64,000 bases of DNA from Candidatus Aenigmatarchaeota archaeon (GCA_016933455.1 JAFGAZ010000015.1:11583-75582); one strand, 5' to 3'; shown: positions 12,991 to 63,197, counted from the first letter of the stretch. Numbers and translations are program-made. The notes: a model not told the origin generated them from the letters alone.

Positions 12991-13000
12991 GGTAAGAGAC

Positions 13001-14576: not shown

Positions 14577-14597
14577 GTTTTCTGTTCATTAAATGTT

Positions 14598-31563: not shown

Positions 31564-32283
31564 TTACGCTTTCTTGAAAACAACGCCTACTTTTTCAAGC
31601 CTTTCCCTAACTCCCTCGGAAATCTCTAGTTCCTCCTCCTCAAAGTCAAAGAAACTAGGGTCGATTGTTTCCAAGCGGTTTCTTAGATTCTCCAAAGAGT
31701 CCTGGTTGGAAAATGACACCATGACAGCCGGATATGCGGGCACGCCCGCCTGCTTTAGGTTCTTTAGGGCTTCTATTTGGTACTCAAAAAACCTAGGCTC
31801 AGCGCCGGTGAGCTTGGAAAACTCTGAAGGGGTTGCTCCCTTTATGCTGACCCTGACGCGCACAATGTCCTTGAATTCCGCAAGCTCCCTTGCATAGCTA
31901 AGGTCGCACCCGAGTATTATGCCGTTTGTTTCTATTATGACATCAAGCTTTGAATCTTTTAGATACTTTAGAACCTTGAGAAGATGCTGCCATCCAAGAG
32001 TTGGCTCGTTGCCTGAAAGCCTAACCTGCTTGAAGCTGTTTTCCCTGGCCATCTTGATTAGCTGGTCTGCAACGTCCTTTGGCTTGCAGAACTCGCCACA
32101 ATCTTCCGGCTTTTCTACTGTTTTCCAGGACTTGCAGAAAGCGCACCTAAGGCAGCACCCGACGCAGTCAGCTGTTGCTATGCCGCCGTATGACTTGGAT
32201 GGTTCGAAACTGTAGAACTTTTTGTCAGAGTTTCTGCACACAATGCTTTCGGTTTCCTTGGCTAGCTCCACTGGATTGAACAT
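31564..32283 (-). CDS. radical SAM domain protein
   Basis: Has a CxxxCxxC cluster within DCVGCCLRCAFCKSW, and SGNEPTL as the glycine-rich SAM motif. The start was moved to MFNPVEL (32283). Confidence 0.7.
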   Translation of the reverse strand: MFNPVELAKETESIVCRNSDKKFYSFEPSKSYGGIATADCVGCCLRCAFCKSWKTVEKPEDCGEFCKPKDVADQLIKMARENSFKQVRLSGNEPTLGWQHLLKVLKYLKDSKLDVIIETNGIILGCDLSYARELAEFKDIVRVRVSIKGATPSEFSKLTGAEPRFFEYQIEALKNLKQAGVPAYPAVMVSFSNQDSLENLRNRLETIDPSFFDFEEEELEISEGVRERLEKVGVVFKKA

Positions 32284-32324: not shown

Positions 32325-32990
32325 ATGAAAAAACTAATTGTAATGACAATGCTGTTTCTTATGCTAAGCACAGTGACTGTCCTTGCAGCGCAAGAGCAGG
32401 TCGGTGTTACGGCAACGGCTACAGCAAAAAAAATATCAGCTTCTCCTGGCAGGATAACTGCTGCGCAGAAGAACCAGTTCAAGCAGACCCTAAGAAACTA
32501 TTTCTCAACAGCAAACCACGGCTACGGCATAGGCTTTACGGAAGATAACTACATAACAGCCAAGTGGTACATAAGCAATGTCAAGATAATTGACAGAGCC
32601 CAGGTAAACCAGATGGTTATGGAAGCCAAGCATAATGACGAGACCGACTGGGACGCTGTTCGGGAAAGGGTAAGAGAGGCCCTTGGTTCTGAGACGGCCA
32701 CTGTAAAGAAAGGCAGGATAAGGATATCTAAAACAGACTATGCCCTAACAAGCATAATTGTTTCCGAATCAGCAGTAACAGCAGACATTAGCGAATTGCC
32801 GGACTATGTTGCATGCGACGAGGCAGAGCTTTCAGCAGAGGAATGCGAAACCAATGCAGAGAAGGTCGGAGAGCTTTCGATAACAAGAAAAGCCAGCACA
32901 AGCGATGCGAACGAGCCGAATGTGTGGGCAGGAACACTGACATTAAGCGATATCGTGTACACTTTTGTAACGTTCGCTTACCCTAGGTGA
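32325..32990 (+). CDS. secreted hypothetical protein (221 aa)
   Basis: Signal peptide MKKLIVMTMLFLMLSTVTVLAAQ. No known domain recognised. Confidence 0.55.
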   Translation: MKKLIVMTMLFLMLSTVTVLAAQEQVGVTATATAKKISASPGRITAAQKNQFKQTLRNYFSTANHGYGIGFTEDNYITAKWYISNVKIIDRAQVNQMVMEAKHNDETDWDAVRERVREALGSETATVKKGRIRISKTDYALTSIIVSESAVTADISELPDYVACDEAELSAEECETNAEKVGELSITRKASTSDANEPNVWAGTLTLSDIVYTFVTFAYPR

Positions 32991-32994
32991 TTGC

Positions 32995-33285
32995 ATGAGA
33001 ATGACAATAATTGCAGCAGCCATTTTGATTGTAATAGCAGCTGTGGCAATACTCATGCTGCCAATTCCCGTTAGTCGAGACACTGGCGGCAACGAGCAGG
33101 AGGTCACCGTAGAGGACAGTGTGCAGGTCGAGCAGACAACAGTCGACGAGGAGTATGTTTTGGAAGATTTGTACACCGACATGCTAAGCGACGAGCTTGA
33201 GGCTATGGACACAGAACAAATGGACTATAACGAGGAAATGCAAGACACCATGGCAGAAGACCTAAGCCAGTTCTACTATGATTGA
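32995..33285 (+). CDS. membrane-anchored, strongly acidic small protein (96 aa)
   Basis: One N-terminal TM segment (IIAAAILIVIAAVAILMLPI) is followed by a D/E-rich tail. It starts 4 nt after the preceding ORF. Confidence 0.5.
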   Translation: MRMTIIAAAILIVIAAVAILMLPIPVSRDTGGNEQEVTVEDSVQVEQTTVDEEYVLEDLYTDMLSDELEAMDTEQMDYNEEMQDTMAEDLSQFYYD

Positions 33286-33295
33286 AAAACCATTC

Positions 33296-33315
33296 CCTTT
33301 CTTTTTATTTTTATT
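33296..33315 (+). terminator. oligo-T archaeal terminator candidate
   Basis: The run tttctttttatttttatt lies directly after the stop at 33285. Confidence 0.4.
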
Positions 33316-33344
33316 AAAATTTCTTAGAAATCATTAGAAAAAAA

Positions 33345-33476
33345 TCAACACAACATCTCAAGCCTTCTGACAGCGTCTCTTACTGCCTCGGACCTGTTGG
33401 GATATATGCCGTTGTCTATCAGGACATCTATTTTTTGGATCAATTCTCTTGTTAAACGTATCTGTATTGGGTGCAA
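33345..33476 (-). CDS. candidate 43-aa ribbon-helix-helix (CopG/Arc-like) DNA-binding protein, putative TTG start
   Basis: Manual translation gives (M)HPIQIRLTRELIQKIDVLIDNGIYPNRSEAVRDAVRRLEMLC*. This is a complete beta-strand plus two-helix RHH pattern. There is no ATG: an in-frame TAA lies 5 codons upstream of the TTG. It is not in the ORF track, and the promoter geometry is unconvincing. Confidence 0.35.
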   Translation of the reverse strand: MHPIQIRLTRELIQKIDVLIDNGIYPNRSEAVRDAVRRLEMLC

Positions 33477-33654
33477 ATTACCACTGTCTATTTATTTAGA
33501 GCAAAAAGATTTAAGCTTGTTTTGAGATAATACGACAAGAAATAGACATGTGTAGTTTTTGCGTAATGTCAAAAAAGAATATATAGTTTCAAGTACCATT
33601 AATGTTGTGTGTTTTCTAAAAATACAACAAAAAAATTCTGTGAGAGGTGAGTAA

Positions 33655-36600
33655 ATGAAGTTATTCGGTAATAGGTTAAAAGGTAGTTCTGGTGTCGCTA
33701 TCGGCGCCATGGTCGTACTCACACTCGCTTTCATAGTTGCTAGCGTGAGCTATATGATGCCTGTTTTGGCTGCTCATGACGCTTTAGTTACCATCACACC
33801 AAATAAAGCAAGCTGTAGTGATTTGCCCAGTACATTCAATGTTAATGTAGAAAATGTCGGTAATGGTGGTTATGGAATTTATAATGTAAAAATATACAAG
33901 GCAATGACTAACATCGTTTCGTTAACATGTGGCCCTGCTCCTTCTGGATGGACATTGGTTGGAGGCGGTCTCCAATTTGGTTCATATTGTGAATATACAA
34001 CTGACCCATACATTGGTGGCGTGATTGATTATGGGGAGGAATTAGACTTTACTTTTGATGCGGTTATAGACCAAGACAATTGTCAAAGCACTTTTAGGGT
34101 AACAACCTTGGATAATCAAGCAATTGTTACTGGTAGCGGTCAGGGAGAAGAAGAGAATCATGACAAGGTGTTAAATGTAGATTGTACACCGCCTGTAATA
34201 GAAAAACAGATAACTTCTGGTACATTTGATGAAAGAGATGGTGTTTGCCCTCCCGGACTACAGGAAGAGGGAGATGTTTGCTGGATGACGCAAGGAACAA
34301 TACATGTCACTGCAACCGATTCTAGCTGCAACGACGAATGTAACTTGGGTCTTGCTTATTGTGAATGGGACTATACTGTTGACGGTGTCCCAGAAGACAG
34401 CGGTAACGAAACCGCAAATACATGCGTTGAAGGATGGGACATTGTCTTTGATGAGGATTCTGAACATATTTTGACAATAACTTGTTATGACGTTGTTGGA
34501 AACAGTGTTGAAGATGTTGAAACATTCAAAGTGGATGACACTCCGCCTACAACAACAAAAGACATAGAGCCGGATGAATATGTTAGAGACGGTGCAGAAT
34601 ATATCGATACTGTGAATGAAATAACATTTACAAATCCTGACGGCGGAGATATATGCGCAATCGGTACGGACAAGACATGGTACAAGAATGTAGTTTATAC
34701 AGAAGAAGTTTTGAGGACAATAAATAATGACGGTCCTCACGGTTATGACTATTGTTATCAGCCAGATATGTATTGTAATGGAGCATATTTGGGAACTACA
34801 ACACCATATGAGAGTGGTGTAGAATGCATAAACGAAGCGCAGGAACATTGCAACGATAACGTTGTGGAAGGTTGCGACGGTTTGGACTGTCAAAGATGGG
34901 AAGCCGATGGATATGACAATTGGGAGAGGTGTGTTGAATCTTATGTATATGGAAATTGTAATGTAGATTCATCATGGAAACTATACGACGGAACCCCAAT
35001 AACAAAAGACCAGGAATCATGCCACGTACTTTATTACTTTAGTATCGATGAGCTAGGAAATGTTGAAGACATGCAGTACAACTGCTTCTTTGTTGACAAG
35101 ACACCGCCAGAATTATCAAAAGAAGTGGGCGATCCAAAACTACAATTTTGTGACATGACAGAAGAGCCTGAAGTATTAACAGAGGCCGATTTGTCCAATG
35201 ATGTGTTTGGAGTTACAGTAACAAAGTCATCCGACGGTACTAAAGTAAAGTGGGTTGTTGATTTTGACGAAACAGATATGGAAGGTCATACGGCTACAGG
35301 AGCTCAGGTTATGATAGCCAGTGAATCAGTTCCTCTATTCAATATAGGTATGATGCAAGATGGGGGCAATTGGTTTGCAGGATACAAGCCTTATGATGGA
35401 AGTTGGGGTGCTGCTACGAATGTTCTTCCAGATGGAATGACTGTAACAGGAAGTCCTAATTCGGAGTACTATGAGATAGAGATTCCTATTGAATCTCTAC
35501 CATGCCCTTATTATTGGGCAATAAATGTAGAAGCAACATGTCCAGGATGTGACGGATTCCCCGGTTCATCTTCGGCACAACAAAACTATCCAGAAGACTG
35601 GTCAAGATGGACAGCTGTAAACACAGCTTTGGGTCCACAAACAAACAATTTCTGGGTAACAGATGAGACGGACATAACATTTACTTGTAGAGATCCAGAA
35701 CCACACCCGTCCGGAGACGAGGAAGTATGCTTTAAGGTTTCGTACGACATGGAACAAGACGGATACAATACAGATGTTTATTGTGCCAAGTATAGTGGAA
35801 CGATGGAAGGAGACTGGTGTTGCATTGATTCTACACCACAAACACCTTTTGTTTTCAATTTCAATGCAGAGGAATATTCTTTGCATGACTTGGAATACTA
35901 TTGTAGAGATGCTGTTGGAAAAGAAAGCGAGCCGAAAATACAATACTACAAGGTCTATGCAGTGCCCGAGGTTTCAAAGGAAATGGCCGACGATGCTGTG
36001 TATATAGGAGACTGCCTGCCTGGCACAGAGCCAAGCGACGACGAATGTTATGTCAAATCCGGAAATGTCGTAGAAATAACATTCAGCGAGCCTCAAGCAA
36101 ACGGATGCTTGTTGCCAATCGAATGTACTTATGAGGTGAAATATCAAAACGAGATTGTAGACTTTGGCGATTTCAATGACGATATCACAATACCAATGTC
36201 AGGTGACTGTGAGCACATTCTTACAATAGAATGTGTAGATGCTATTGGTAATACAGCTTTCCATGATGTGGAAACATTCGAAGTGGATGAGACCCCGCCA
36301 GAGACAACAAAAACATACGGAGATCCGACTGTTGTTGACGGTGATTATAGATGGATTACTTCAGCTACGCCAATAACACTGACTTCAGAAGATGAAAAGG
36401 TTGGTGTCGATGGTATCTATTACACATACGAATGGGTTTCTGATGAAATGTGCGAAGCACATCCAGAGAATTCAAAGACAGACGAATACCAGTATCTACC
36501 ATCGTCTGGAAATTACGTGTTCCCTTCGACCAATGAAGATAACAAGAACGGGGAAAACGTCTACAGACCAGGAGTTATAGGACCTCATGTGAACTTGGTC

Positions 36601-44800: not shown

Positions 44801-45014
44801 AATTACAAAGAACGATACAAGATGTGTTATGCCAGATGGTCCTGTTTGTGACAATTGTGGCAACTCTGTTCCTGAAATAGAGATACCGACATTTAACATA
44901 CAAATGCCAAAGTTCACTGTACCTACATTTAGCTTTACAAAACCTTCTTTCGACTTTTCTAAGACTGTTTTCAAGATACCTAGCATAACATTCTCATCTT
45001 TCCTTAGAAGATAG
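41856..45014 (+). CDS. giant secreted Cys-rich protein (1052 aa) with PKD-like N-domain, disintegrin-like domain and repeated Cys-rich modules
   Basis: Has a signal peptide, a PKD-like INWGDGT motif and ICDNDIDDDCDGLVDCDDPDC. The disintegrin-like region begins VCGNGIVETGEDCDPGEDVSGDCCDATC and is followed by six disintegrin-loop-like repeats. Later Cys-rich blocks include FCNG/WCNG-type repeats. The C-terminus is a P-x-F periodic tail with no TM segment. Confidence 0.85.
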   Translation: MKASSIAFVLSVFFVSTIIISTIVFAGQAVYSIDVEQPVPGSNVINPVDITGIWHVSAPQGNIEQYNVQINWGDGTVVDIVNINRTEAGETQQTQEFFGNFSTLVLTDCDSDDGEDNCNVGLLSHTYGGEYLCQQTDVTVKLYHSTPPGTESSGDAQVNFILIPGIDEICDNDIDDDCDGLVDCDDPDCDGDPACPVQVCGNGIVETGEDCDPGEDVSGDCCDATCHYETSSYTCRDSVGVCDMPEQCTGSSALCPEDSFMSSSTVCRSGSGDLCDPDETCTGTDASCPADQISPAGMVCNYGSGDMCDPDETCTGVAGEACPVDSIMPYMTVCRSGSGDLCDPDEMCTGIEDMPCPEDNVASSDTECRQAAGICDVAETCTGVVGQTCPTDSFLSSSTVCRVSAGDCDLTEMCTGSSADCPDDAFVPQGTLCLDGSYCNGEEKCDGFGVCQSGSAVSCISNDISEIATCFNTPDGNDYTWDSRNPFTSICVDDDENTGHCTTGDDTVTSACDYEQCNAECDETHACDDSSCEETYDDYCDGFVLTEYDSDKIKDSTTVSDSCPNTCLGDCTCTDCDTDCSAPATSTYCVKDVCDAECDSDDDCDVTDCDYLDGCYGKDYYDYSDAENTCLGDCSCTVNSCTSPSISQNDARCTECQTDSDCDSKDRDYCVGTAVKHDEGRCVDYECSVETTTVQECDDTLWCNGDETCSNAACVSGTAPNVDDGVDCTIDSCDEANDVIINTPDDSYCDNGLWCDGQETCDISLGCQAGTAIDCSDDLFCTVDEYCDDDSDSCAFSPRDCSGNNIEGIATCNNDPDNNPFTWDYRSAFESSCDDENDVCTVGDSEISYTCHDCDLTDGIGTSLEERCCAECDQDSDCVQSTGYCDYENMTYCSRDSYGTCGDDCGCIDDAWSCDASEYCLYCDHCGDGEVNCGEDCEVGDQGDRCLPEGASIFTCINGDSYETPEFDVCTQTCEWDGCTQIITKNDTRCVMPDGPVCDNCGNSVPEIEIPTFNIQMPKFTVPTFSFTKPSFDFSKTVFKIPSITFSSFLRR
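42453..43154 (+). repeat. disintegrin-like domain plus six tandem ~33-aa repeats C-[RN]-x(3,4)-G-x-C-D-x-x-E-x-C-T-G-x(4,5)-C-P-x-D
   Basis: The repeats begin at Cys235, 267, 300, 334, 368 and 401 of the ORF. Examples are CRDSVGVCDMPEQCTGSSALCPED and CRSGSGDLCDPDETCTGTDASCPAD. Confidence 0.8.
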
Positions 45015-45274
45015 TTGTCTTATTCTTGTATAGCAAAAATCGATAAATTATTTAAAGAACATGCGTTCTGTAATAGTTTTGTATTGATTCTGTACTAACA
45101 TTGTGCGTAATTTGTCTCAGTGGGGATTAAATAATTTTTTTCATTCATTTAGTTTATGCTTAACTTTCTACAAGTTAGAGCGCCGAGGAGGGGCGCTATA
45201 ACAAGCCGAGGTTCACCGCGAAGCTTAGGCTTTCCTAGGGAAGCAAAATACCCAAATGATATGGTGAAAACAAA

Positions 45275-45865
45275 ATGAATAGCAAAATAATCGCAGCATT
45301 AGTTGGTTTGATGATGTTGTCAACACCTGTTTTCGCAACAGGCTGTTCTGGACCTGACTGCGTTATGCCAAACGACGGAAGCATAGACACATCATTTACA
45401 GGAAGTGGATGGAATGTTTGGTTTAATGACATGACAATAGTCGAGGAATGCCCATTCGATAGTGATACACTCACTGGAGATGACGTAATAATCGAAGATA
45501 TATCTACAATGTTCGGAGAAATGTCTGTTTTGCAAAACATAAACATTGAAGACAACAGAAGGTCACCAACAGAGGTTGTTTTGAATGCACAAATCGGCGT
45601 AACTCCATGGATGTTCTCAAATGCATACGTAGACACATACGCAACATGGGATAACGATGGATCTGTGTTCAGACAAGCAACATTGGGCGACGTGACAAAC
45701 GTAGTCAGTGTAGGTGCAAGCGAGGGTACATTTGTGGACAATTTGGCATACAAGGACACAATAAATGTGTACAAGTCAATTGGTTTGAACACATACAACA
45801 TATGCGACATTCATACAGTACACTCAGTCGACACACCCACATGTGATTGGTGTCAGACAGATTAA
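45275..45865 (+). CDS. secreted hypothetical protein (196 aa)
   Basis: Signal peptide MNSKIIAALVGLMMLSTPVFATG, with SD GGTGA upstream. The fully overlapping antisense ORF 45235-45810 was rejected. Confidence 0.65.
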   Translation: MNSKIIAALVGLMMLSTPVFATGCSGPDCVMPNDGSIDTSFTGSGWNVWFNDMTIVEECPFDSDTLTGDDVIIEDISTMFGEMSVLQNINIEDNRRSPTEVVLNAQIGVTPWMFSNAYVDTYATWDNDGSVFRQATLGDVTNVVSVGASEGTFVDNLAYKDTINVYKSIGLNTYNICDIHTVHSVDTPTCDWCQTD

Positions 45866-45878
45866 TAGAAAACCCTTG

Positions 45879-45904
45879 ATTTTTTTTCTTTTCCTTTTGT
45901 TTTC
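45879..45904 (+). terminator. oligo-T terminator candidate
   Basis: The run attttttttcttttccttttgttttc follows the stop at 45865. Confidence 0.45.
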
Positions 45905-45962
45905 AGGAAAAGACGACAAGCATTTAAAGATTTGTAATTAATTACAACCAAAAGGTAATGAA

Positions 45963-46802
45963 ATGAAAACAACAATGATAGCAACCTTGATTATGTTTAC
46001 TCTATTTAGCACTATGGCCTTTGCAACTTCTGTTAGCACAGATTACGAAGGCGTAGGAGAGTTCTCAATGGAAGTTACGATAGCTTCGTCAGTAAATCCT
46101 GATATAACAGACAGCGTCCACATAAACGCAGGTTGCTGCGGCACATGCTGCTGTCCTAACGAATGCTGCCCTGCGATCGGAGAAATAGGAGAATACCAGG
46201 GCAATTTGTTTATGACAAACAATCCCTTTTCGGTTTCATATCATTCAGCAGATGTCACCGAGGGTTGCGTTGACATAGACCAATATTATACCGATGTGAT
46301 AGGTGATATGACCATTCAGAGCTACTATCATACACACCTAAACGGCACAGGCACTGCGGAATCATACATGTTTTACGTTGTTCCTGGAGCAGCAGCTAGC
46401 ATACAGCTAGCAAACGGTACAGGAACTTCTCATGTTTCCTTTGGTCAGATAGCCTATGTAGGAACTGACTATGATTTTTCAGCAGAATATGGCGGAACTG
46501 TTTGGGCTTGCGCTCCTGGCTATGCTGGACTTTACAACGAGTACTATTACAGCGGCGGTCAGATTTACTACAGCAGCCAGCTTGGACTTTACTGCTCCCC
46601 GACTGACGGCAGCAAGATGAGCAGCTCTTTGTTTGCATCATCAACTGACAGCTTCAATCTGACAAGCGAGTTGCAGGTGGGTGATGTTGAGAATTGCCAG
46701 GAAGCAGGGGTTGAAAACGGTACTGCAGAATATGGATTTACTGCAAACTTTTACGACATGTTCGATGATGTTTATTTCGGTTTTGATATGATTTTAGGGT
46801 GA
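45963..46802 (+). CDS. secreted hypothetical protein (279 aa) with a CCGTCCCPNECC cysteine cluster
   Basis: Signal peptide MKTTMIATLIMFTLFSTMAFATS, with SD AAGGTAATGA. The mature part is Y/G/S-rich. Confidence 0.65.
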   Translation: MKTTMIATLIMFTLFSTMAFATSVSTDYEGVGEFSMEVTIASSVNPDITDSVHINAGCCGTCCCPNECCPAIGEIGEYQGNLFMTNNPFSVSYHSADVTEGCVDIDQYYTDVIGDMTIQSYYHTHLNGTGTAESYMFYVVPGAAASIQLANGTGTSHVSFGQIAYVGTDYDFSAEYGGTVWACAPGYAGLYNEYYYSGGQIYYSSQLGLYCSPTDGSKMSSSLFASSTDSFNLTSELQVGDVENCQEAGVENGTAEYGFTANFYDMFDDVYFGFDMILG

Positions 46803-46806
46803 TTTA

Positions 46807-47874
46807 ATGAAAAAAACTATATTAGCAACAATAATGGGAATAATGCTGTTATCTACGCTTGCGTTGGCAGACCAGGTTAACATGAACATAAGCGTGAACG
46901 GTGAGGCAAACCTAAACATAACAGTTGATGCAGACGATACAGAAGCAAGGGCAATGATCGCACAAATGCAGCTCGATGCCTACGGAACCATGACAGGCTC
47001 CGGACCTGCTGACATGATACTTGACGAGATACAGACAGGTGAGGGAAACCCCATAGTGACAACAGAAGGCATGAACACGGTTTATGATCTTTGCGAGGAC
47101 CCCTTCCTCAAGAACTATCTTGGAAACATAGGCGAACTTCCCCCTCTCGACTTTGTGGATTATGTAAAGGCATTGGGATACGATGACGAGGCTCACATAA
47201 ACCTCATATGGACAATATGCCAGCAAAAATACATAGCTGAGAAAGAAGAGAGATGGTCATCTGACACAGGAGTTCAGGTAAACGACATGGTGAGGTTCAT
47301 AGCAGGCGGCATAGAGTGGCTTGTTAGCAGGGACCCAACGCTTCCTGACGGATACAAGAAGATAGGAAGCTCAATGGATAGCTACTTTGCAAGCGACAAG
47401 GATGTGTGGATTTTGGTCAATAAGATAAAGGAACTCGAGGTAAGGCTTGAGACTTTGGAAAAGACCATGGAAAGAGTGGACACTGAGACGTACTGTGATG
47501 CAAAGCTTGAGGCAATGGACAAGTACAACCTAAGCTATGTAAAGTGTGGAGAGAACTCTACCATATACGCACAGGTAAATCCAGATGAATTCGGCATTGG
47601 AGTTGTTGGTTACACGACCAACGAGGTCAGATGTGAGGAAGACTGGACATGCACAGAGTGGGGAGAATGTGTTGACGGCGAGATGAACAGGGTGTGCACT
47701 GATGCGAACCTTTGCGGAACAACAGATAACATGCCTTTGCAAACGCAGGGATGTGTTGAAATAGAGATTATGGCAGAAGAAGACAAGTCAAACGCACCTC
47801 AGTTTTCTTACCTGTCAATGACAGCTGCTCTTTCGAACATTCAAGGTTTTCTTTTCCCATTGTTTATTGTTTAG
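46807..47874 (+). CDS. secreted protein (355 aa) with coiled-coil segment, TSP1-like Cys module and hydrophobic C-terminus
   Basis: Has a signal peptide, and starts 4 nt after the previous stop with SD GGGTGAT. The Cys module is CEEDWTCTEWGECVDGEMNRVCTDANLCGT...C (47632-47754). The protein ends ...GFLFPLFIV. Confidence 0.7.
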   Translation: MKKTILATIMGIMLLSTLALADQVNMNISVNGEANLNITVDADDTEARAMIAQMQLDAYGTMTGSGPADMILDEIQTGEGNPIVTTEGMNTVYDLCEDPFLKNYLGNIGELPPLDFVDYVKALGYDDEAHINLIWTICQQKYIAEKEERWSSDTGVQVNDMVRFIAGGIEWLVSRDPTLPDGYKKIGSSMDSYFASDKDVWILVNKIKELEVRLETLEKTMERVDTETYCDAKLEAMDKYNLSYVKCGENSTIYAQVNPDEFGIGVVGYTTNEVRCEEDWTCTEWGECVDGEMNRVCTDANLCGTTDNMPLQTQGCVEIEIMAEEDKSNAPQFSYLSMTAALSNIQGFLFPLFIV

Positions 47875-47899
47875 ATGGGAAGACAGAATTTTTTTCTAA

Positions 47900-47917
47900 A
47901 TTCTCTTATAAGAGAAT
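47900..47917. promoter_or_regulatory. 18-bp perfect palindrome ATTCTCTTATAAGAGAAT, 9 nt upstream of a TATA-like ATTTAAAG (47927-47934)
   Basis: Verified by eye. It lies between the T-run after gene 46807-47874 and the SD-led gene 47993-49111. Confidence 0.4.
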
Positions 47918-47992
47918 GCTATTAAGATTTAAAGTTTAGAAGAGTAATGAATAGTAGAAATTTTTTCTTAAAAAAATAAAAGGAGTGATAAA

Positions 47993-49111
47993 ATGAATAA
48001 AAAAATATTAGCTATAATACCAGTGCTTCTAATGGCTACAGTCGCTTTGGCAGACGGTTGCCCTGAAGGATATTCGGCACAGTTTGTTGAGACACTAGAT
48101 GTTCCTTGCGATAGCACTACATCTACAACGACAAGTTCACTTACAGAAGGTGTTCAGTACATATTTGATGCAAGTGGAACATGTTTCTGGCGTGTTGAAG
48201 GATCTGCCGGCGGATATATTGCAGATTCAAGCTATTGGTTGAGACATGATTCAATATACGAAGGATGGAGAGACCAGTATTCACTCGCTATGTGGGACAA
48301 CGGCTTTGTAAACATTCCATGGATAGGAACATATGAAGGTCCAAATGCTCATGAATACGAATATGATTATGTGACATTGACATCAGGACCCGTGCAGTTC
48401 ATATTCACAGATGATCAGTATGGCGATAATTCGGGTAGTTTGAATGTTGACATATACGAGTGCGTTCGAAATATTCCGGATAGGACAGCAGAAATAACTT
48501 CTCCAGAAATAGAAGAATCTGTTTCAGAATGTTCTGTGGACTTTGACGCATACCTAATAGACGATGACTATGATGCTGTTCAATGGGCAATTAGAAAGGG
48601 AACATGTGCTGCAGGTACAAATACCGTGTTTGGAAATGTCGATGGTTTCAACAACCCATTCGATTGGATATTCGATGGCGAATATACATATAACTTCCAT
48701 GCGCAAACTGACGTTTCTGGATGGGAAACAGGAAACTATTGTTTCGTTTTCAATCCAAAAGAAGATTTGGGAGAGTCGGACATAAGATTGACAAGAGAAT
48801 TTTCCATAAGCGATTTAGACGAAGACGGAATAAACGATTGTAGCGATATGTGTCTAGATAGTCAGAAAGACTTGATGGAACTTGGTACAAACAGATGGAT
48901 GGTCGAAGATTGGACATGGGTAACAGGAGAAATAAAGGGCAAAGGAAAAGGACCCCAGCTTTCATACGACTATAAAGGTTGCACATGTAGTGACATCTTG
49001 ACATGGCTGAACGAGAACTATCCAGAAGAATATGGAAACATGGAAGGTCATTGGAAATTCGGTTGCAGCATAAGCGTCATGAACGATTTCATATCTCTGA
49101 CGTCCCAATGA
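47993..49111 (+). CDS. secreted hypothetical protein (372 aa)
   Basis: Signal peptide MNKKILAIIPVLLMATVALADG, with SD AGGAGTGAT. The C-terminal module DEDGINDCSDMC...KGCTCSDIL...KFGCSISVM is shared with the C-terminus of the 1998-aa ORF. Confidence 0.7.
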   Translation: MNKKILAIIPVLLMATVALADGCPEGYSAQFVETLDVPCDSTTSTTTSSLTEGVQYIFDASGTCFWRVEGSAGGYIADSSYWLRHDSIYEGWRDQYSLAMWDNGFVNIPWIGTYEGPNAHEYEYDYVTLTSGPVQFIFTDDQYGDNSGSLNVDIYECVRNIPDRTAEITSPEIEESVSECSVDFDAYLIDDDYDAVQWAIRKGTCAAGTNTVFGNVDGFNNPFDWIFDGEYTYNFHAQTDVSGWETGNYCFVFNPKEDLGESDIRLTREFSISDLDEDGINDCSDMCLDSQKDLMELGTNRWMVEDWTWVTGEIKGKGKGPQLSYDYKGCTCSDILTWLNENYPEEYGNMEGHWKFGCSISVMNDFISLTSQ

Positions 49112-49148
49112 TTTTTTTGATTTTTCTTTTTCTCTTTATTTTTATTAT
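49112..49148 (+). terminator. oligo-T terminator candidate
   Basis: The run tttttttgatttttctttttctctttatttttattatt follows immediately after the stop codon. Confidence 0.5.
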
Positions 49149-49261
49149 TAGTGTAAACTTTGCGTAATTTTCACATGTTTAAACATCAGCTATTTATTTC
49201 TAGAAACCAAATATATGTTAAAATGTTTTCTTTGAATTTAATCAGAAAAGGAGGTATTAAA

Positions 49262-49939
49262 ATGAAAAAATTGCTAGTATTACTACCTATATTTTTAATA
49301 GCGACAATGGCGTTTGCAAAACAAGATTGCATCACGATACAAGATCAAATATTGACATACTCGACAGGTCATTATCTAGCAGGAGAACCTTTGACAATAG
49401 GATATGACGCATATGGTTACAATTATCAGGGACACATGTTCAAAGGATCTTATTTCAATGTATATTCTGGCGGTGCAGGATTCACACCTTATGTAGGAGA
49501 AGATGAGATTTATCTAGAGGAAAATCCCGCAGCAGAAACGCATTGGGCTTGGCCTTATAGAGACATTCAAATATTAATGAAATGGAATGATGCATGGCTC
49601 AGTAACAAAGACTGTGATAATGATGGCAAGTTGGATAGATATTATGGATATTCTAGCTATATCGGTTCAGGTGCGTGGGAGACAAATCACCAATTTGGTG
49701 AATATGAAATGGATGGAAAAACTTGTACATGGAACTATTTTACAAAAATAGTCGCAGCACCCACTGATGCCAACGTAAACACTGGTTACTGGTATACAGC
49801 AGATGGAGTAGAAATCGGACCTGTTTTATGGGGTTCGTTTGCAACAATATTAGACGTATACAACGATCCATGCGCGGGTGATCATGGCGTTGAATATAAT
49901 TCACCCGCACCGACAGGCTTCGGATTTTACATGCCTTAG
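49262..49939 (+). CDS. secreted hypothetical protein (225 aa), aromatic/Gly-rich
   Basis: Internal ATG with a strong SD (AAAGGAGGT) and signal peptide MKKLLVLLPIFLIATMAFAKQ. The track ORF starts at an upstream TTG. Confidence 0.7.
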   Translation: MKKLLVLLPIFLIATMAFAKQDCITIQDQILTYSTGHYLAGEPLTIGYDAYGYNYQGHMFKGSYFNVYSGGAGFTPYVGEDEIYLEENPAAETHWAWPYRDIQILMKWNDAWLSNKDCDNDGKLDRYYGYSSYIGSGAWETNHQFGEYEMDGKTCTWNYFTKIVAAPTDANVNTGYWYTADGVEIGPVLWGSFATILDVYNDPCAGDHGVEYNSPAPTGFGFYMP

Positions 49940-49976: not shown

Positions 49977-50008
49977 AAGCATTTAAAGTTTTGAATATAA
50001 TTTACAAC

Positions 50009-50599
50009 ATGTTGCTAAATGTTTACAACTTTTCAAAGGAAAGAAAGGAAGTTGATACAATAAAGCTACCTGTGCAAAACATAATAGTTTTCAATGAGGA
50101 TCTTTTCACACCAATTCTACTTCCAAAAAACGAAAGAAATCCTGATTCTGTTGGATATTATGATAGGGAGCTAAAACTTGGTGGTGATGCCAGTAAAAAG
50201 ATTCTTCTTGTTGATGCATTAGAAAAAGGAAAATTAAAAAATAACAACATATATCCTGCAATAACTAATGCTTCTCTAGAGGACCTAGGAAGAATGGATA
50301 ATTTGAAAATAATAAAGGAATGGAAAAAATCTGTAAACGATAAAGTTTACTTTATCGAAATAGAAGAGAAAGATTTTCGTTCCAAAAAATACGAGATTTT
50401 ACGAGACAAATTTCTTCACAAACCTGATTTGTTTACATTGTTAACTTCATATCAACTAGGTGCCGACATCGTTTCGGACAAAAGAGAACTAAGAGCTCCT
50501 GAATTGGAAGAATACACCAAAGCCTTTTTTGAAAGATGGGGAATGAAGAAAAAATTCAGAAAGCATACTTCTGAGAGCATTATTAGAAATGCAAGATGA
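50009..50599 (+). CDS. hypothetical cytoplasmic protein (~196 aa)
   Basis: ORF only. The ATG at 50009 lies 28 nt downstream of the TATA-like ATTTAAAG (49981-49988). The track start at 49991 is a TTG. Confidence 0.45.
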   Translation: MLLNVYNFSKERKEVDTIKLPVQNIIVFNEDLFTPILLPKNERNPDSVGYYDRELKLGGDASKKILLVDALEKGKLKNNNIYPAITNASLEDLGRMDNLKIIKEWKKSVNDKVYFIEIEEKDFRSKKYEILRDKFLHKPDLFTLLTSYQLGADIVSDKRELRAPELEEYTKAFFERWGMKKKFRKHTSESIIRNAR

Positions 50600-51730
50600 C
50601 TATTTTCTACTTTGTATAGACAAAATGTCCCCGTTCTCAAGAACATAGTCTGCTGACACACGCCTTTTTGTCTTGGCATCAATGGCGCCGATGAACTTGT
50701 CGCCGATATCAGAGTGCACCTTGTATGCCATGTCAAGGGCAGTCGAGCCTCTTGGCAGAAGGATGACATCAGGCAAGACATTGCCCTTCTTGTCACAAAG
50801 TTTGGACTCGTTTTCAACCGGGTACACCGCGATATAGTCCATGAAATCAAACACTGCCTTATTGAGACAGTCCTGAACTCCGGTCGAGCCGAATCTTTCC
50901 AATACCAGTTTTCTTATTGTCTCAAGCCCCTTTTTCTGCTGCTCGGAAAGCTCCTTTTTGATTTCAAAAGATTTCTTGCCAGGAATGTAATCGATAAAGT
51001 CTGCCTTGGAAGCCATTCTCAAAGTTATCTCAGCTTCAGCAGAGCAAGGTACTATTATGGTTTCGGGGAATTTTTCCTTCATTCTTTTCAGATTCTCTTC
51101 AGAACATGGAAGGTCCATCTTGTTTGCTGCTATTAGTATCGGCTTTGACAAAAACCTTAGTTCCTTTGCCAAGGCGTTCGGGTCAAGCCCCACCTTGTTT
51201 ATTGCCTTTTCAACATGCTCTGGTCTTATGCCAAGGCCCGTCAAAGCATCGCACGCCTTTTGCTTGTCTCTTATCTTTTCCAGATTCTTTTTGATTATGC
51301 TAGCAAACCACATCACTATCTCGTTCTCAAGAAAGCCGACGTCCTCAGCAGGGTCGTAATTGTCAGTAGCGTTTCCCTCGGCATCGGTTTTGCCAGAAGC
51401 GTCAACAATGTGTATTAGCATGTCTGCTTGTATGATATCGCTTAGGAACTTGTTTCCTAGACCTTTGCCCTCGTGCGCGCCGGGTATTAGGCCCGCAATG
51501 TCCCAGAGCTTTACAGGAACAAGCCTTGTGCCGTTTATGCACTGGGAATTTTTTGGGCTGCACTTTACTTTCAGCTCCTGGCACGGGCAGGGGACAGTGA
51601 CATAGCATACCCCGACATTCGGCTTTATCGTTGTGAACGGCCTTGAAGAAATCGGCACGTCTATCATGGTTGCTGCCTTAAAGAAGCTTGACTTTCCCGA
51701 GGACGGCTTGCCGCATATTGCTATTTCCAT
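50600..51730 (-). CDS. YchF/Obg-like P-loop GTPase with C-terminal TGS domain
   Basis: G1 is GKPSSGKS, G2 is FTT, G3 is DIAGLIPGA and G4 is NKMD. The C-terminal TGS pattern is LPRGSTALDMAYKVHSDIGDKFIGA. Confidence 0.8.
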   Translation of the reverse strand: MEIAICGKPSSGKSSFFKAATMIDVPISSRPFTTIKPNVGVCYVTVPCPCQELKVKCSPKNSQCINGTRLVPVKLWDIAGLIPGAHEGKGLGNKFLSDIIQADMLIHIVDASGKTDAEGNATDNYDPAEDVGFLENEIVMWFASIIKKNLEKIRDKQKACDALTGLGIRPEHVEKAINKVGLDPNALAKELRFLSKPILIAANKMDLPCSEENLKRMKEKFPETIIVPCSAEAEITLRMASKADFIDYIPGKKSFEIKKELSEQQKKGLETIRKLVLERFGSTGVQDCLNKAVFDFMDYIAVYPVENESKLCDKKGNVLPDVILLPRGSTALDMAYKVHSDIGDKFIGAIDAKTKRRVSADYVLENGDILSIQSRK

Positions 51731-57907: not shown

Positions 57908-60364
57908 CTAACCTGCCATTTCTGCTTGAATTTCTGACTGCGTCAAAGCCTTTTCAAATATCTTGACCTCGTCTATTGTTCCGTCAAAGAGCTTCCAGTT
58001 TGCTCCGGGATTGTTACCTATCCAAGCTGAAATAGTGTTGTCAGTTGCTATGCTTCCGGTTTTTGCTGTTATACCCACCTGAATTCCGTTCTTGTACAAT
58101 ATCATGTGCGTTGAGTTGTAAACTGCGGCAGCATGTGTCCATGTCCCTGTCTGCAGTTCGTCTGAGCTGTCTGGCAAGTCATCTCCGTATAGTGTGGCAG
58201 TTCCGCCCACGCTAGTTTTCAGTCTGAACCTCAAGTAATAAGGCGAGCTGCCTATGGTGCTTAGCATCCACCAATGATCCTGTTCATCCTGGCCTGTTGC
58301 CTTTGATATTATTCTCTGGTCAGAAGTTCCAAAATCATCTACTTTTATCCAAGCCATCATTGTCATTTCACTACCTGTAATATCCATAGTTCCTATGTCG
58401 ACATAATCGTCGTATCCGTCAAATTCCAAACAGTTTCCGTTATTGCAATCGCTTCCTGTTTTCCATGCTGAATCAGTAAACGTAGTCAATGTGCTTCCGT
58501 ATTCTATCTGGAAAGCGTCTACCCACAAATTACCCGTAGCACTACCTACCAAACCCAAAGTAAAATTATACTTAACAGCGCCTGGAGGTGGTACGTGAGT
58601 TGTATAAGACCTTTTCCAATCCCATGTACCTGTACCACTTCCTATTTTCGAATCAGGATATCTTGTATACGGAGAGCTTGTGTAACTAGTAATCTCATTA
58701 TCTGATGAATCATACCATCTTCCTATAATCAATGCATAATGCCATGATACCGAACCTAAAACTATATTTTCACCCTTGCTGTAAGTGCTTATTGTAATAG
58801 GATTATCGGTTGTAACAGGAATAGAAACAGGACCTGCATACTCAGAATAACTGTCTCCCGTAAGATCTTGAAACCTTGAAGATTTAGATACATGATAAAA
58901 ATCACTTGAAACGATGTCCCATGTTCCTCCTCCACTTCCCCAACCAGTTTTATCTGATTCAAAGCTCGGGTTTGTAATCTGGTTTCTCCCACTAGCATAA
59001 ATAGTGCCGTCGTTGCTGCCAGCACTGTCAACTGCTATTGAACCTGATCCTTCGTCAAAGCTCCAGAAGACTATTGGATTTGCTTCTTCTATTTCATATT
59101 TTTGATATTCTTGTTGTATTTCTTCCTGTGCAAGTTCCGTGTTATATATTAAAATCTCGTCTATTGTGCCGTCGAAATAATTGGTGCCATCGCTTCTTCT
59201 ACCAATATTCAAGTTGGCAGAATTGCCAAAGCCATAACCGCTAGGACTAGAGTCATCAATGCGAATTCCGTTGACATAAACCTTTATGCTGCTTGTTCCG
59301 TCGAATGTGAATGCTACGTGGGTCCATTCGTTGAGTGGTATGACGTTTCCAAGATTTCCTCTGTAATAGTTGACGCCCCCGTAGCGGTACTGTGCCATTA
59401 TCGAACCTGTGCTGCCCGACCTTGCTATTATGTAACTACCGTCCCCTCCATTCCCTTCGCTTATTATCCTGTCATAAGCGTCCCACGTGTCTGGTTTTAT
59501 CCACATCATGACAGTTATCTCACCGACTACATTAAGAGTGCTATCATCTCCGCAGTTAAGGTATTCGTCTGCACCGTTGAATCTTAAGCCTTGATTTGAT
59601 ATGCCGCTTACCCAATCAGTTGTTTCCATGTTGATGAGATTACAGTCGTTTCCATTGCCGGAAGTATCTGATGCGACAAAGTCGCCGCTGTCGTCAAAAT
59701 TCCAGAAACCTATTATGCCTGTTTCGGGATAGCCACAAACATTCGAGATGCACACCTCGCTACAACAATCGCTTTCTGATGTACAAGTTTCTCCGTCTTC
59801 TTTACACGGCTCTTCACAGTCATTGTCATTGGCATAGTTGCAGTCCAAGCCGCAGCATTCGTTGTTGTTATAGCAGCCGCAGTCAGGGTCCTCTGAAATT
59901 GTGCAGTCGCTTGGGCATTTACCATCACATAAACCGTTCGTTATGCAATCTGGCTCGGATTCTCCTGGCAAAGTTTTTGAAGAAGAGCCTCCCTGCCCTG
60001 AAGACACGCTTATCACAGCTCCTGGTTCAGGATCGAAAGACAGAGTCACAACCCCTATATCGTCTTCGTGTATTGTGGAAGGAACAATCGTTGCGCTGCT
60101 GTCAGCAACTCCGTCAACAAAAACAACTATATTGGTTGCATCCCCCCTTCCTGTGTTTCTTACATACACCTCTCTTTCAGGAAGATAAACCGACTCTATG
60201 CTAAGAGTTGATAGTAATGTTTTGGAAGTTTGCTCTGCAGCCTCAATGCCGCTTTGGGCGGTTTCAGAGACAGTGACGCTAAAGAAGCTGTAGGTTAGTG
60301 ATACGAGTGAGACCGCTATGATAAGTATTAGTATTGAAACGATAATAGCAGATACGCCTTTCAT
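57908..60364 (-). CDS. archaeal type IV pilin-like (class III signal peptide) adhesin with Cys-rich linker, two LamG domains and a CBM-like jelly roll (818 aa)
   Basis: The N-terminus MKGVSAIIVSILILIIAVSLVSL (60281-60364) fits the prepilin motif [KR]-G-[V]-[S]-[A]-[I] plus a hydrophobic helix (DUF361-like). Two LamG_3 C-terminal signatures are present: FDGTIDEILIYNTELAQEEI and FDGTIDEVKIFEKALTQSEI. The middle region has NPSFE...GW...LWVDAFQIE. Confidence 0.8.
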   Translation of the reverse strand: MKGVSAIIVSILILIIAVSLVSLTYSFFSVTVSETAQSGIEAAEQTSKTLLSTLSIESVYLPEREVYVRNTGRGDATNIVVFVDGVADSSATIVPSTIHEDDIGVVTLSFDPEPGAVISVSSGQGGSSSKTLPGESEPDCITNGLCDGKCPSDCTISEDPDCGCYNNNECCGLDCNYANDNDCEEPCKEDGETCTSESDCCSEVCISNVCGYPETGIIGFWNFDDSGDFVASDTSGNGNDCNLINMETTDWVSGISNQGLRFNGADEYLNCGDDSTLNVVGEITVMMWIKPDTWDAYDRIISEGNGGDGSYIIARSGSTGSIMAQYRYGGVNYYRGNLGNVIPLNEWTHVAFTFDGTSSIKVYVNGIRIDDSSPSGYGFGNSANLNIGRRSDGTNYFDGTIDEILIYNTELAQEEIQQEYQKYEIEEANPIVFWSFDEGSGSIAVDSAGSNDGTIYASGRNQITNPSFESDKTGWGSGGGTWDIVSSDFYHVSKSSRFQDLTGDSYSEYAGPVSIPVTTDNPITISTYSKGENIVLGSVSWHYALIIGRWYDSSDNEITSYTSSPYTRYPDSKIGSGTGTWDWKRSYTTHVPPPGAVKYNFTLGLVGSATGNLWVDAFQIEYGSTLTTFTDSAWKTGSDCNNGNCLEFDGYDDYVDIGTMDITGSEMTMMAWIKVDDFGTSDQRIISKATGQDEQDHWWMLSTIGSSPYYLRFRLKTSVGGTATLYGDDLPDSSDELQTGTWTHAAAVYNSTHMILYKNGIQVGITAKTGSIATDNTISAWIGNNPGANWKLFDGTIDEVKIFEKALTQSEIQAEMAG

Positions 60365-62811: not shown

Positions 62812-63197
62812 CTTTTTGAAATTAATAACTTCTTACGTGATAACATGTCAACTTCAATGTAATCATTGGAATCATTGCTGATTAGGCGACTAGATGAGGC
62901 TTCTTCTGACATTAACGTTATCCGTTTCAACCATACCATCAGGCTTGGTTGCTGTCGAGTGAATTATAACAGCTAAGTTTGAGCCCGAAAAGGGCTATGA
63001 AAAACCCCGTGGTATATGACGGCAGAAAAACGATAAGATGCTCATTGCGAATTGTTTCGCGGTGTAAGGGTTGAGGACTATGAATGTTTTCGAACACCTG
63101 TTGATGCCTACTTCGGGCAGATGAGAACAAGACGGTAAAACGAGTCCATAAGATCAATCATGATCAATGATACCGGCAGAGGTAGAAGGTAGGGTCT

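Follow-up and report, generated by a model that had tools for sequence, protein, structure and literature searches.

A 64,000-nt stretch of DNA from Candidatus Aenigmatarchaeota archaeon (GCA_016933455.1, JAFGAZ010000015.1:11583-75582; hereafter the window) carries, at positions 32325-49939, a cluster of 15 open reading frames (ORFs), most of them predicted to encode exported or membrane proteins. Central to the cluster are two adjoining genes, one for a 1557-aa secreted protein (the giant) and one for a 248-aa membrane-anchored partner (the anchor), and this pair recurs across DPANN archaea. With moderate confidence, we interpret the cluster as a surface-display locus with linked regulators, founded on a giant and its separate tether, with a probable role in contact or attachment. 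A literature search for a described DPANN pair of this kind found none, and the family pair appears to be undescribed. For most DPANN lineages (Aenigmarchaeota, Woesearchaeota, Pacearchaeota, Iainarchaeota) no culture is available, and the way in which they build their surfaces and attach is largely guesswork; a conserved tethered giant linked to small DNA-binding genes would provide concrete targets for the study of DPANN surface biology.

The giant protein and its membrane-anchored neighbour

The pair comprises the following features (TM, transmembrane; pI, isoelectric point):
33655-38328, plus strand: giant secreted protein, 1557 aa, with 65 Cys (4.2%), a pI of 4.05, a string of beta-sandwich modules and no TM anchor of its own
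36913-38325, plus strand: conserved C-terminal region of the giant (aa 1087-1557), the family signature and a proposed docking or assembly domain
38381-39127, plus strand: membrane-anchored partner, 248 aa, with signal peptide, N-domain of ~100 aa, G/S/T linker, 6-Cys module, TM helix and basic tail

Export calls here and below are based on Kyte-Doolittle hydropathy and homologue alignments, not on a dedicated signal-peptide predictor. By hydropathy, the sole hydrophobic segment of the giant is its N-terminal signal region. Alignment of more than 40 homologues reveals a Sec-type signal peptide followed by a conserved mature N-terminus, AHDATVTISPDIANC..LGNTFTVNV, and all homologues whose N-termini were aligned contain ~4% Cys. 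Because a Sec signal peptide at the N-terminus is the only such element, the mature protein would lack a membrane anchor of its own. A class III (type IV pilin-like) signal, RLKG↓SSGV, was considered for the window protein and rejected, since the homologue N-termini are of Sec type with an A-x-A site preceding a conserved H(D/T)ATVTI.

A database search returned 147 homologues of 1400-2600 aa, the named ones from Aenigma-, Iain-/Diaphero-, Woese- and Nanoarchaeota. The homology is full-length and colinear, with internally repeated modules, and homologue coverage drops at aa 501-650 and 951-1050; two predicted inserts, at about aa 500-660 and 950-1080, are less conserved than the rest. A Pfam scan of the giant yielded no family. 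In the NCBIfam scan, the protein matched the OmpL47-type beta-barrel domain (NF047446, 55.6 bits against a cut-off of 40) and scored 54.6 bits against the full-length OmpL47 equivalog NF047441, for which the cut-off is 250; at E ≤ 0.1 the OmpL47-type matches were the only ones, with neither TIGR01564/TIGR01567 nor any other S-layer family among them.

The C-terminal region defines the family. A region matching giant residues ~1087-1555 lies at the extreme C-terminus in 110 of 120 hits, and its alignment (A1) displays 47-64% identity to the window protein, invariant Cys and Trp residues, and the motifs KKWNL(I/V)S.P, PG.GYW and GWNL.GY.G. An AlphaFold model of the region (predicted local distance difference test [pLDDT] 78, predicted TM-score [pTM] 0.78) is an all-beta sandwich. 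The 50 best Foldseek matches of this model in the PDB, six of which reach E ≤ 0.001, are generic immunoglobulin (Ig)/fibronectin type III (FN3) strings alone, with TM-scores below 0.2.

The architecture of the anchor is fixed in 29 partners (alignment A3). A signal peptide is followed by a ~100-aa domain with the pattern PG.PHQFYG.V..NG.PAPDG..., then by a linker rich in G, S and T and a module in which six Cys and two Trp residues are invariant; an (I/P)TG(F/A) motif leads into a TM helix, and a basic tail ends the protein. A Pfam scan of the 29 anchor homologues yielded no family, and a PDB profile search with A3 returned only Gly/Ser-linker artefacts. The C-terminal arrangement of (I/P)TG(F/A), TM helix and R/K-rich end resembles a PGF-CTERM/archaeosortase-type sorting signal.

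In order to describe the spread of the pair, we used a pattern scan with A1 over one genome per GTDB species, which gives a lower bound on taxonomic range and relies on bin labels that may be wrong. The scan yielded 77 giant loci, mostly one per genome, in metagenome-assembled genomes (MAGs) labelled Aenigmat-, Iain-, Woese-, Pace-, Nano-, Micr- and Altiarchaeota, among others, and including the complete AR10 genome; none of the 77 is in a cultured DPANN genome. Of the 74 loci in which sequence continues past the giant, about 58 have an anchor homologue as the adjoining downstream gene, and in 54 of the 74 the next gene has a C-terminal hydrophobic segment. All-against-all clustering of the ORFs identifies the giant and anchor families as the only ones widely shared (65 and 57 loci, respectively), the rest being lineage-specific. 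Several loci are in oddly labelled bins, namely L007 (QNCD01000087.1, 'Omnitrophota'), L016 (JAFCCG010000049.1, 'Chloroflexi') and L011, L062, L046, L069, L070 and L080 (Omnitrophota, Chloroflexi or Methanosarcinales). Mis-binning of DPANN contigs is the probable cause, and the contigs may come from physically associated cells.

The pair also departs from its surroundings in rate of change. Between the window and its relative L004, flanking genes are 69-90% identical, against 48-49% for the giant and 49% for the anchor, and in L006 and L002 the flanks are 60-75% identical to the window (RHH, the ribbon-helix-helix gene described below, 76-90%), yet the C-terminal region of the giant is 59-64% identical. 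Giant and anchor thus seem to evolve fast and incongruently with their flanks, a pattern that fits diversifying selection, cassette-like exchange or both. Tandem giant paralogues precede a single anchor in L085, L091, L092, L109, L115 and L128, and in L122 a giant-family frame (10451-20380) runs for 3310 codons and is still open at the contig end.

N-glycosylation sequons (N-X-S/T) are strongly depleted in the giant (1 against 10.4 ± 3.1 expected) and in two other exported proteins of the window, at 14598-20594 (8 against 22.9 ± 4.2) and 57908-60364 (2 against 9.3 ± 2.7). Over 110 giant-family members the ratio of observed to expected sequons ranges from 0 to 3.5, many members being strongly depleted and many strongly enriched, which suggests lineage-specific use or avoidance of N-glycosylation.

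Inheritance of the cluster and its DNA-binding genes

The borders of the cluster, its two DNA-binding genes and the Cys-rich gene beside one of them are listed here; single genes are named below by their first coordinate.
31564-32283, minus strand: radical S-adenosylmethionine (SAM) gene, left flank (PF04055, E = 4.7e-18)
33345-33476, minus strand: ribbon-helix-helix (RHH, CopG-type) protein, 43 aa, TTG start, RHH_1 match, divergent from the giant gene
33477-33654, no strand: RHH-giant intergenic region, 178 bp, candidate divergent promoter/operator and candidate RHH target
41375-41800, plus strand: ArsR-type winged helix-turn-helix (wHTH) protein, 141 aa, HTH_5 match, 55 bp upstream of a Cys-rich gene
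41856-45014, plus strand: secreted mosaic protein, 1052 aa, 116 Cys (11%), disintegrin-type repeats, in a variable Cys-rich slot after the wHTH gene
50600-51730, minus strand: Obg-like GTPase with TGS domain, right flank

The initial annotation had described these genes as part of a cell-surface island between two housekeeping genes. All 15 ORFs were found where it had placed them, and both flanks are of the kinds it had named. Hydropathy confirmed N-terminal signal-like and/or TM segments in 13 of the 15 ORFs. When only ORFs of 90 aa or longer are considered, such segments occur in 13 of the 14 within the region and in 15 of the 46 that lie outside it in the window (Fisher p = 1e-4). Our own sum of exported-protein coding sequence, ~25.6 kb (~40% of the window), is close to the ~24 kb (~38%) given previously. 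The modules said to be common to cluster members and a distant 1998-aa protein were recovered as well: anchor residues 146-202 match residues 270-330 of g46807 at 39% identity, and residues 416-884 of g41856 match residues 1482-1988 of the 1998-aa protein at 30%.

The term 'island', in contrast, does not hold. GC content is 0.37-0.46 along the whole window and 0.38-0.46 over 32-50 kb, with no shift; a tRNA scan of the 64 kb found none, and none of the 15 ORFs has an integrase- or transposase-type Pfam match. Related Aenigmarchaeota preserve the arrangement, with 12 of the 15 genes in the same order in L004 (GCA_043802485.1), 9 of 15 in L006 and parts in L002 and L064. The layout recurs in L004, L006, L085, L091 and others, and in its common form (as in L091 and L085) reads g32325, g32995, RHH (minus strand), wHTH, giant (sometimes two), anchor, wHTH, Cys-rich gene, g45275, g45963 and g46807. 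The window lacks the first wHTH gene of this layout, and in the window, L004 and L006 a glycosyltransferase pair and a small secreted gene are inserted after the anchor. The initial annotation had staked its idea on linkage in relatives, and that linkage is conserved.

The possibility that the region was acquired horizontally as a mobile element, or that the giant ORFs are assembly chimeras, draws on the position between housekeeping genes, on the bacterial origin of the best database hits of g41856 and on the incongruence between giant and flanks. Both forms of this explanation are very improbable. A mobile genomic island is contradicted by the flat composition, the missing tRNA and integrase or transposase matches, and the synteny in relatives, and no relatives were found on viral contigs. 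As to chimeras, a protein identical to the giant (JW700_03215 [Candidatus Aenigmarchaeota archaeon]) is encoded on a 76-kb NCBI MAG contig and the same locus is present in a separately assembled Logan contig from run SRR13394437, although the MAG may stem from the same reads; colinear homologues of full length occur in more than 100 other assemblies. On gene order and composition, the cluster is to be read as a vertically inherited cell-envelope locus and not as an acquired island.

The two ORFs that had been taken for cytoplasmic DNA-binding proteins match such folds, and each adjoins a large Cys-rich gene as reported, the RHH gene divergently across 178 bp and the wHTH gene 55 bp upstream on the same strand. 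Residues 4-39 of the RHH protein align with positions 2-36 of the 39 in RHH_1 (PF01402; E = 4.8e-7, 29.9 bits against a cut-off of 20.5). The RHH protein shares 90% identity with its counterparts in L004 and L006, against 49-59% for the giant. Members of the same subfamily are found upstream and divergent of the giant, or of wHTH plus giant, in L002, L003, L004, L006, L034 and L058, and RHH genes are present in 16 metagenomic wHTH loci. The broader proposal that an RHH gene precedes every giant was abandoned when an RHH hidden Markov model run over the 77 giant loci placed the subfamily in one subclade alone. On its far side the RHH gene has neighbours that vary by genome, while the giant/wHTH side is constant. 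The gene that follows RHH on the same strand is a weakly bactofilin-like 216-aa ORF in L004 (9042-9692, minus strand) and a 220-aa ORF in L034 (1833-2495, minus strand) that looks pentapeptide-repeat-like by eye; the window has no such gene. Compared with CopG/Arc repressors, the window protein has a similar Pfam match and promoter-side position, but it consists of nothing more than the 43-aa domain, and the window contains no partner toxin gene.

Alignment of the RHH-giant intergenic regions of the window, L004 and L006 (A2) delineates several elements. Conserved blocks lie at 33503-33519 (AAAAAGATTTAAGCTTG) and 33543-33568 (TAGACA..TGTAGTT..TGCGTAATG), a TATA-like AATATATAG is situated at about 33578-33586, ~70 nt before the ATG of the giant, and a Shine-Dalgarno sequence (GAGGTGA) occupies 33644-33650. 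The blocks may function as promoter and operator elements. Inspection of the intergenic region by eye for operator repeats gave no convincing palindrome.

Residues 35-84 of the wHTH protein match HTH_5 (PF01022; E = 5e-7, 29.9 bits against a cut-off of 22), and the protein is 87% identical in L004. Proteins of the ArsR/SmtB type are classic metal sensors, with an ELCVCD-type Cys motif in helix 3 as their canonical metal site. The window protein resembles these regulators in Pfam match and promoter-side position; it differs in that this motif is not seen in the family alignment (A5) and in a conserved C-terminal extension of ~55 aa. A single semi-conserved Cys, within 'ICSN', is present in 7 of the 8 aligned members.

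A reverse search of metagenome contigs with the wHTH family (A5) gave 79 loci. The giant is present in 22 of the 37 loci that span at least 6 kb. Downstream sequence of at least 1.5 kb is available for 39 wHTH copies. The gene that comes next on the same strand belongs to the giant family in 14 cases, is g41856-like in 8, g45275-like in 2 and of another kind in 14, with no such gene in 1; in 38 of the 39 it comprises at least 150 codons, and most of these genes are of exported type. Most of the 14 other genes encode signal-like N-termini, six of them with a TasA-like N-terminal motif. The wHTH family is therefore found beside surface-structure genes of more than one kind. The TasA-like sequence, AYFSD.E.S.GNTFTAG, follows wHTH in L100, L101, L103, L104, L108 and L123; the one such protein that was scanned (L100, 10642-11577) matches Peptidase_M73 (camelysin) with 26.9 bits against a cut-off of 22.5. 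In other lineages, different small HTH genes are situated upstream of the giant, including an 'LSPLQ...' wHTH family and an Lrp/AsnC protein. The pairing of a small DNA-binding gene with a large Cys-rich gene is a recurrent arrangement and not a coincidence of one genome, and from their placement we infer that the RHH and wHTH proteins may act as transcription regulators of the adjoining genes.

The Cys-rich protein that follows wHTH in the window is itself a mosaic. Disintegrin (PF00200) matches g41856 in three stretches with 48.3 bits against a cut-off of 35.1, best over residues 183-258, and a near-complete CGNG.VE.GE.CD...CR...G.CD..E.CTG.S..CP.D is followed by about five extra repeats of its last sub-motif. 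The 700 database hits are local only and mostly bacterial (Sorangium, Myxococcales, Binatia). Signature and repeats are shared with ADAM and snake-venom disintegrins and with sce9349 of the bacterium Sorangium cellulosum; g41856 differs in being an archaeal mosaic without a metalloprotease, of which 20-40% aligns to any one database hit and whose N-terminal region and C-terminal ~180 aa are common only to positional homologues in Aenigmarchaeota. Such homologues follow wHTH in L116 (41% over 656 aa) and L091 (N- and C-terminal parts, 44-48%), while in L085, L087, L088, L089 and L107 shorter proteins in this position share the C-terminal 160-190 aa (43-55%). No g41856 homologue is present in L004, L006, L002 or L092. 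Its absence from L004, L006 and L002 had first suggested a strain-specific insertion, an idea that was dropped because the metagenomic loci display a recurrent Cys-rich slot occupied by partial orthologues.

These arrangements bear on whether the cluster is a functional unit at all. Exported genes might merely have accumulated here, with the RHH gene a leftover antitoxin and wHTH a general metal or stress regulator. Beyond the clade nothing is conserved outside giant and anchor, the RHH gene lies near toxin-antitoxin-type genes in L003 (PIN_9) and L002 (NTP_transf_2), the glycosyltransferase pair is confined to the window, L004 and L006 among the fetched loci, and 9 of the 15 proteins have no assigned function. 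Even so, we judge an accidental grouping rather improbable: the order RHH, (wHTH), giant, anchor, wHTH, Cys-rich gene and trio (g45275 to g46807) is repeated in many independent metagenomic contigs, nearly every wHTH copy has a sizeable, mostly exported-type gene next to it on the same strand, and the RHH gene combines a constant giant/wHTH side with 90% conservation and a conserved intergenic region.

Extracellular metal or redox chemistry is another conceivable purpose for the Cys-rich exported proteins, in which case wHTH would sense metal or redox state. The ArsR/SmtB relationship, the Cys retained in 'ICSN', the 4-11% Cys of the large proteins, and the MopE-type metal-binding motifs and NosD-like beta-helix of the related 1998-aa protein are all compatible with this proposal. 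Several findings nonetheless make it distinctly improbable. The alignment shows no 'CVC' site of the canonical ArsR type, the Cys residues are arranged as in disulfide-knotted modules (disintegrin, 6-Cys module), and the Pfam and NCBIfam scans identified no cytochrome, oxidoreductase or transporter gene in the cluster.

Possible roles of the tethered giant

A surface-display locus of the kind we favour would work as follows. The giant would be exported by Sec, and its signal peptide cut at the A-x-A site to leave an anchorless mature form. Its C-terminal ~470 aa would then dock onto the conserved N-domain of the anchor, which would hold the giant off the membrane through the flexible G/S/T linker, the 6-Cys module and the C-terminal TM helix. 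The poorly conserved inserts at about aa 500-660 and 950-1080 would be the exposed contact parts, and their fast, phylogeny-incongruent evolution would reflect selection by partners, hosts or viruses. Of the attachment or host-interaction toolkit proposed in the initial annotation, the conserved linkage stands and the island does not; the attachment role is suggested by domain content and evolutionary pattern.

The closest organisational parallel is SlaA/SlaB of the Sulfolobales. SlaA, about 1400 aa long, is a secreted multi-beta-sandwich subunit that lacks an anchor, and the gene immediately after it encodes a small tether with a signal peptide and a C-terminal TM helix. The giant and anchor have this layout of an anchorless large secreted subunit beside a small C-terminal-TM subunit. 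They differ in the G/S/T linker and 6-Cys module that replace the coiled coil of the tether, and in the Cys-rich, sometimes tandem giant with its variable inserts; they belong to DPANN and not to Thermoproteota. SlaA is not among the 50 best Foldseek PDB matches of the giant C-terminal model, and no Pfam or NCBIfam S-layer family was matched.

In content, the giant is nearer to adhesins. The OmpL47-type multi-barrel proteins of Leptospira and SiiE of Salmonella are likewise long strings of beta-sandwich or beta-barrel domains, surface-displayed as predicted for the giant; the OmpL47-type domain match and the presence of SiiE among the best Foldseek hits point in the same direction. The likeness has limits, in that the giant falls well short of the OmpL47 equivalog score (54.6 against 250 bits), Foldseek TM-scores are below 0.2, and the tether is a separate membrane protein in place of an outer membrane or type 1 secretion system, with export by archaeal Sec. 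The organisation is thus SlaA/SlaB-like and the content giant-Ig-adhesin-like, and on sequence and fold the pair is a member of neither group.

Within DPANN, work on cultured archaea has put forward candidates other than this pair. Candidate proteins of Nanobdella include a large Ig-fold secreted protein without a C-terminal TM helix and a separate C-terminal-TM protein proposed as its anchor (bioRxiv 10.1101/2023.10.27.564410); the two genes are not reported to be adjacent, and they are compared with the window pair by description only. According to the same preprint, the S-layer protein of no DPANN archaeon has been determined, candidates alone having been proposed. A structural survey predicts an MSTP-like S-layer protein for Aenigmatarchaeota and other DPANN (bioRxiv 10.1101/2024.05.28.596244), and the Micrarchaeum paper names 'few sulfur-containing amino acids' as an S-layer hallmark and describes an S-layer protein with TIGR01564/TIGR01567 domains.

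Giant and anchor might alternatively form an S-layer or second envelope layer, with a secreted canopy subunit and an adjoining small anchored stalk as in SlaA/SlaB. Such a layer is consistent with the strict adjacency of a large secreted and a small C-terminal-TM subunit in about 58 of 74 loci, the DPANN-wide spread with mostly one locus per genome, the acidity of the giant (pI 4.05), its size near that of SlaA, and the strong Shine-Dalgarno sequence and TATA-like box that precede its gene; a SlaA/SlaB-like pair has, moreover, been proposed for the DPANN archaeon Nanobdella (bioRxiv 10.1101/2023.10.27.564410). Two further points favour a layer: sequons are enriched 2-3.5-fold in part of the giant family, as in S-layer glycoproteins, and lattice contacts would be in keeping with how strongly the C-terminal domain is conserved.

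An S-layer had been our leading idea. It was downgraded after the MSTP-like prediction for DPANN, since the giant lacks the TIGR01564/TIGR01567 domains of that type and is Cys-rich (~4% is atypical) and poor in sequons (1 against 10.4 expected in the window). Beyond generic Ig strings there is no sequence or fold match to SlaA or to solved S-layer proteins, the anchor stalk is a G/S/T linker without coiled coil on inspection of A3, and tandem paralogues, variable inserts and dedicated regulators are better suited to a variable adhesin. We consider a SlaA/SlaB-like layer unlikely, though it is the chief competitor of the contact reading. A role in contact or adhesion is favoured over a lattice because of the variable inserts, the tandem copies, the incongruent evolution, the OmpL47-type domains and the dedicated regulators.

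Other observations count against a contact role or the proposed assembly. Docking of the giant on the anchor is proposed on the strength of adjacency and conservation pattern, and the signal peptides are called from hydropathy and alignment. No specific relative of the giant C-terminal region, the anchor or the partner of the glycosyltransferase emerged from the Foldseek and PDB profile searches. By BLAST, the C-terminal domain of the giant is 40-58% identical across phylum-level lineages, which would be unusual for a host-specific adhesin and could instead indicate a lattice or horizontal exchange. The Iainarchaeota/AR10 lineage carries the pair and is not known to need hosts. As for regulation, RHH adjacency is confined to one subclade, and the wHTH gene may be co-transcribed with its neighbour in a role other than regulating it.

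A more ambitious version, which we advance only tentatively, would make giant and anchor an ancestral DPANN-wide contact apparatus with a conserved N-terminal tip, a C-terminal dock and a tether with 6-Cys module. Swappable inserts would set host or partner specificity through cassette exchange and diversification, and the apparatus would be switched by a circuit of RHH and ArsR-like wHTH proteins that also controls disintegrin-type and TasA-like surface proteins. If this is true, DPANN episymbiosis would gain its first candidate for a molecular basis common to lineages beyond the few in culture. If the genes are instead ordinary envelope furniture, the labels 'island' and 'orphan' are still corrected, and families without a Pfam match have been defined, namely the anchor, the glycosyltransferase partner (weakly DUF2334-like) and the wHTH subfamily.

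Polysaccharide genes and the remaining exported proteins

The remaining genes of the cluster and its right edge are as follows:
32325-32990, plus strand: secreted protein, 221 aa, signal-like N-terminus, no Pfam or NCBIfam family; left end of the conserved cluster
32995-33285, plus strand: protein with N-terminal TM segment, 96 aa, very acidic tail (hydropathy; 25% D+E)
39174-39926, plus strand: bitopic membrane protein, 250 aa, with extracytoplasmic alpha/beta domain; partner of the glycosyltransferase
39914-40975, plus strand: family-2 glycosyltransferase (GT2; PF00535) of synthase type with C-terminal TM segments
40962-41285, minus strand: secreted protein, 107 aa, signal-like N-terminus
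45275-47874, plus strand: three secreted proteins (196, 279 and 355 aa), a conserved clade trio, no Pfam or NCBIfam family
47993-49111 and 49160-49939, plus strand: two secreted proteins (372 aa and ~225 aa), signal-like N-termini, no family; variable right end
49991-50599, plus strand: basic non-exported protein, 202 aa, right edge of the region

The GT2 reported in the initial annotation is a clear member of its family (PF00535, E = 1.2e-31, 110 bits against a cut-off of 23.3; Glyco_trans_2_3, E = 6e-18) and is 74-79% identical in L004 and L006. Its best NCBIfam match is PgaC_IcaA (TIGR03937), at 125 bits, far below the cut-off of 422, with NodC next. The gene overlaps that of the 250-aa protein by 13 nt, and in P0141, P0142 and P0145 a domain of the 250-aa type is fused N-terminal to GT2. 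Functional coupling of the two proteins is well supported because of these fusions and the overlap, and together they probably make a surface polysaccharide.

The 250-aa family is rare: one search gave 19 hits, and a set of 1.84 billion proteins contains only 11 representative clusters. Its HG..H motif (aa 64-68) is invariant, as are R167 and N172-T173-D174 of an RVDD.NTD block in which D169/D170 are nearly so. A partial match to DUF2334 (PF10096), a predicted deacetylase family, was obtained for 7 of 18 members (best E = 1.2e-7) and not for the window protein. The model of the window protein is of good quality (pLDDT 89), and neither Foldseek with this model nor a PDB profile search with the family alignment (A4) gave a significant match, solved deacetylases included. 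In P0143, P0144 and P0146, the HG..H region (aa ~46-78) aligns with DUF2334 positions 58-93 and the RVDD region (aa ~157-201) with positions 3-42; this swapped order suggests that the domain may be circularly permuted. The pair is reminiscent of PgaC/PgaB and IcaA/IcaB in joining a GT2 of processive-synthase type with an extracytoplasmic partner weakly related to DUF2334, the genes overlapping here and fused elsewhere. It is distinct in that the GT2 lies below the equivalog cut-off, PgaD/IcaD and PgaA are missing, and the partner has no Pfam hit, no fold match to a solved deacetylase and a motif order apparently permuted relative to DUF2334.

At the left end, g32325 has syntenic homologues in L004 (77% identity) and L006 (61%) and in several metagenomic loci beside RHH. 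It lies 4 bp from g32995, so the two are likely to be co-transcribed; homologues of g32995 occur in L004 (59%), L006, L091, L139 and L156. The small g40962 has homologues in the same position in L004 (50%) and L006 (29%).

Five secreted proteins on the right had been called orphans. The description does not suit the three of the trio, which have homologues in the same order in L004 (42-74% identity), L085, L087, L091, L092 and L129, and the last of which (g46807) carries the 6-Cys module of the anchor. It does suit the proteins at 47993-49111 and 49160-49939, for which no homologues were found in the fetched loci (L002-L160). The first of these is weakly similar to the 1998-aa protein (25% over 196 aa), and the second probably starts at 49262 (MKKLLVLL...). 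In L004 and L006 the homologues of g49991 are found at the opposite end of the cluster, beside the radical SAM genes, which indicates local rearrangement.

Elsewhere in the window are archaeal housekeeping genes and, at 63194-64000 (plus strand), the 5' part of an archaeal 23S rRNA; the preceding 63 kb contain no 16S rRNA or tRNA, and the rRNA genes appear to be unlinked. Three further exported proteins were noted. A lipoprotein-like protein of 212 aa (62098-62736, minus strand) has a Kazal-type inhibitor domain (PF00050, 22.7 bits against a cut-off of 21), and we know of no member of this serine-protease-inhibitor family from archaea. The 1998-aa protein (14598-20594, plus strand) combines a NosD/beta-helix domain, six FG-GAP repeats and MopE-type metal-binding motifs. 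An 818-aa protein (57908-60364, minus strand) starts with MKGVSAIIVSILILIIAVSLV, which has the look of an archaeal type IV pilin-like (class III) signal, and contains two LamG/ConA-like lectin domains (Laminin_G_3, E = 3e-56).

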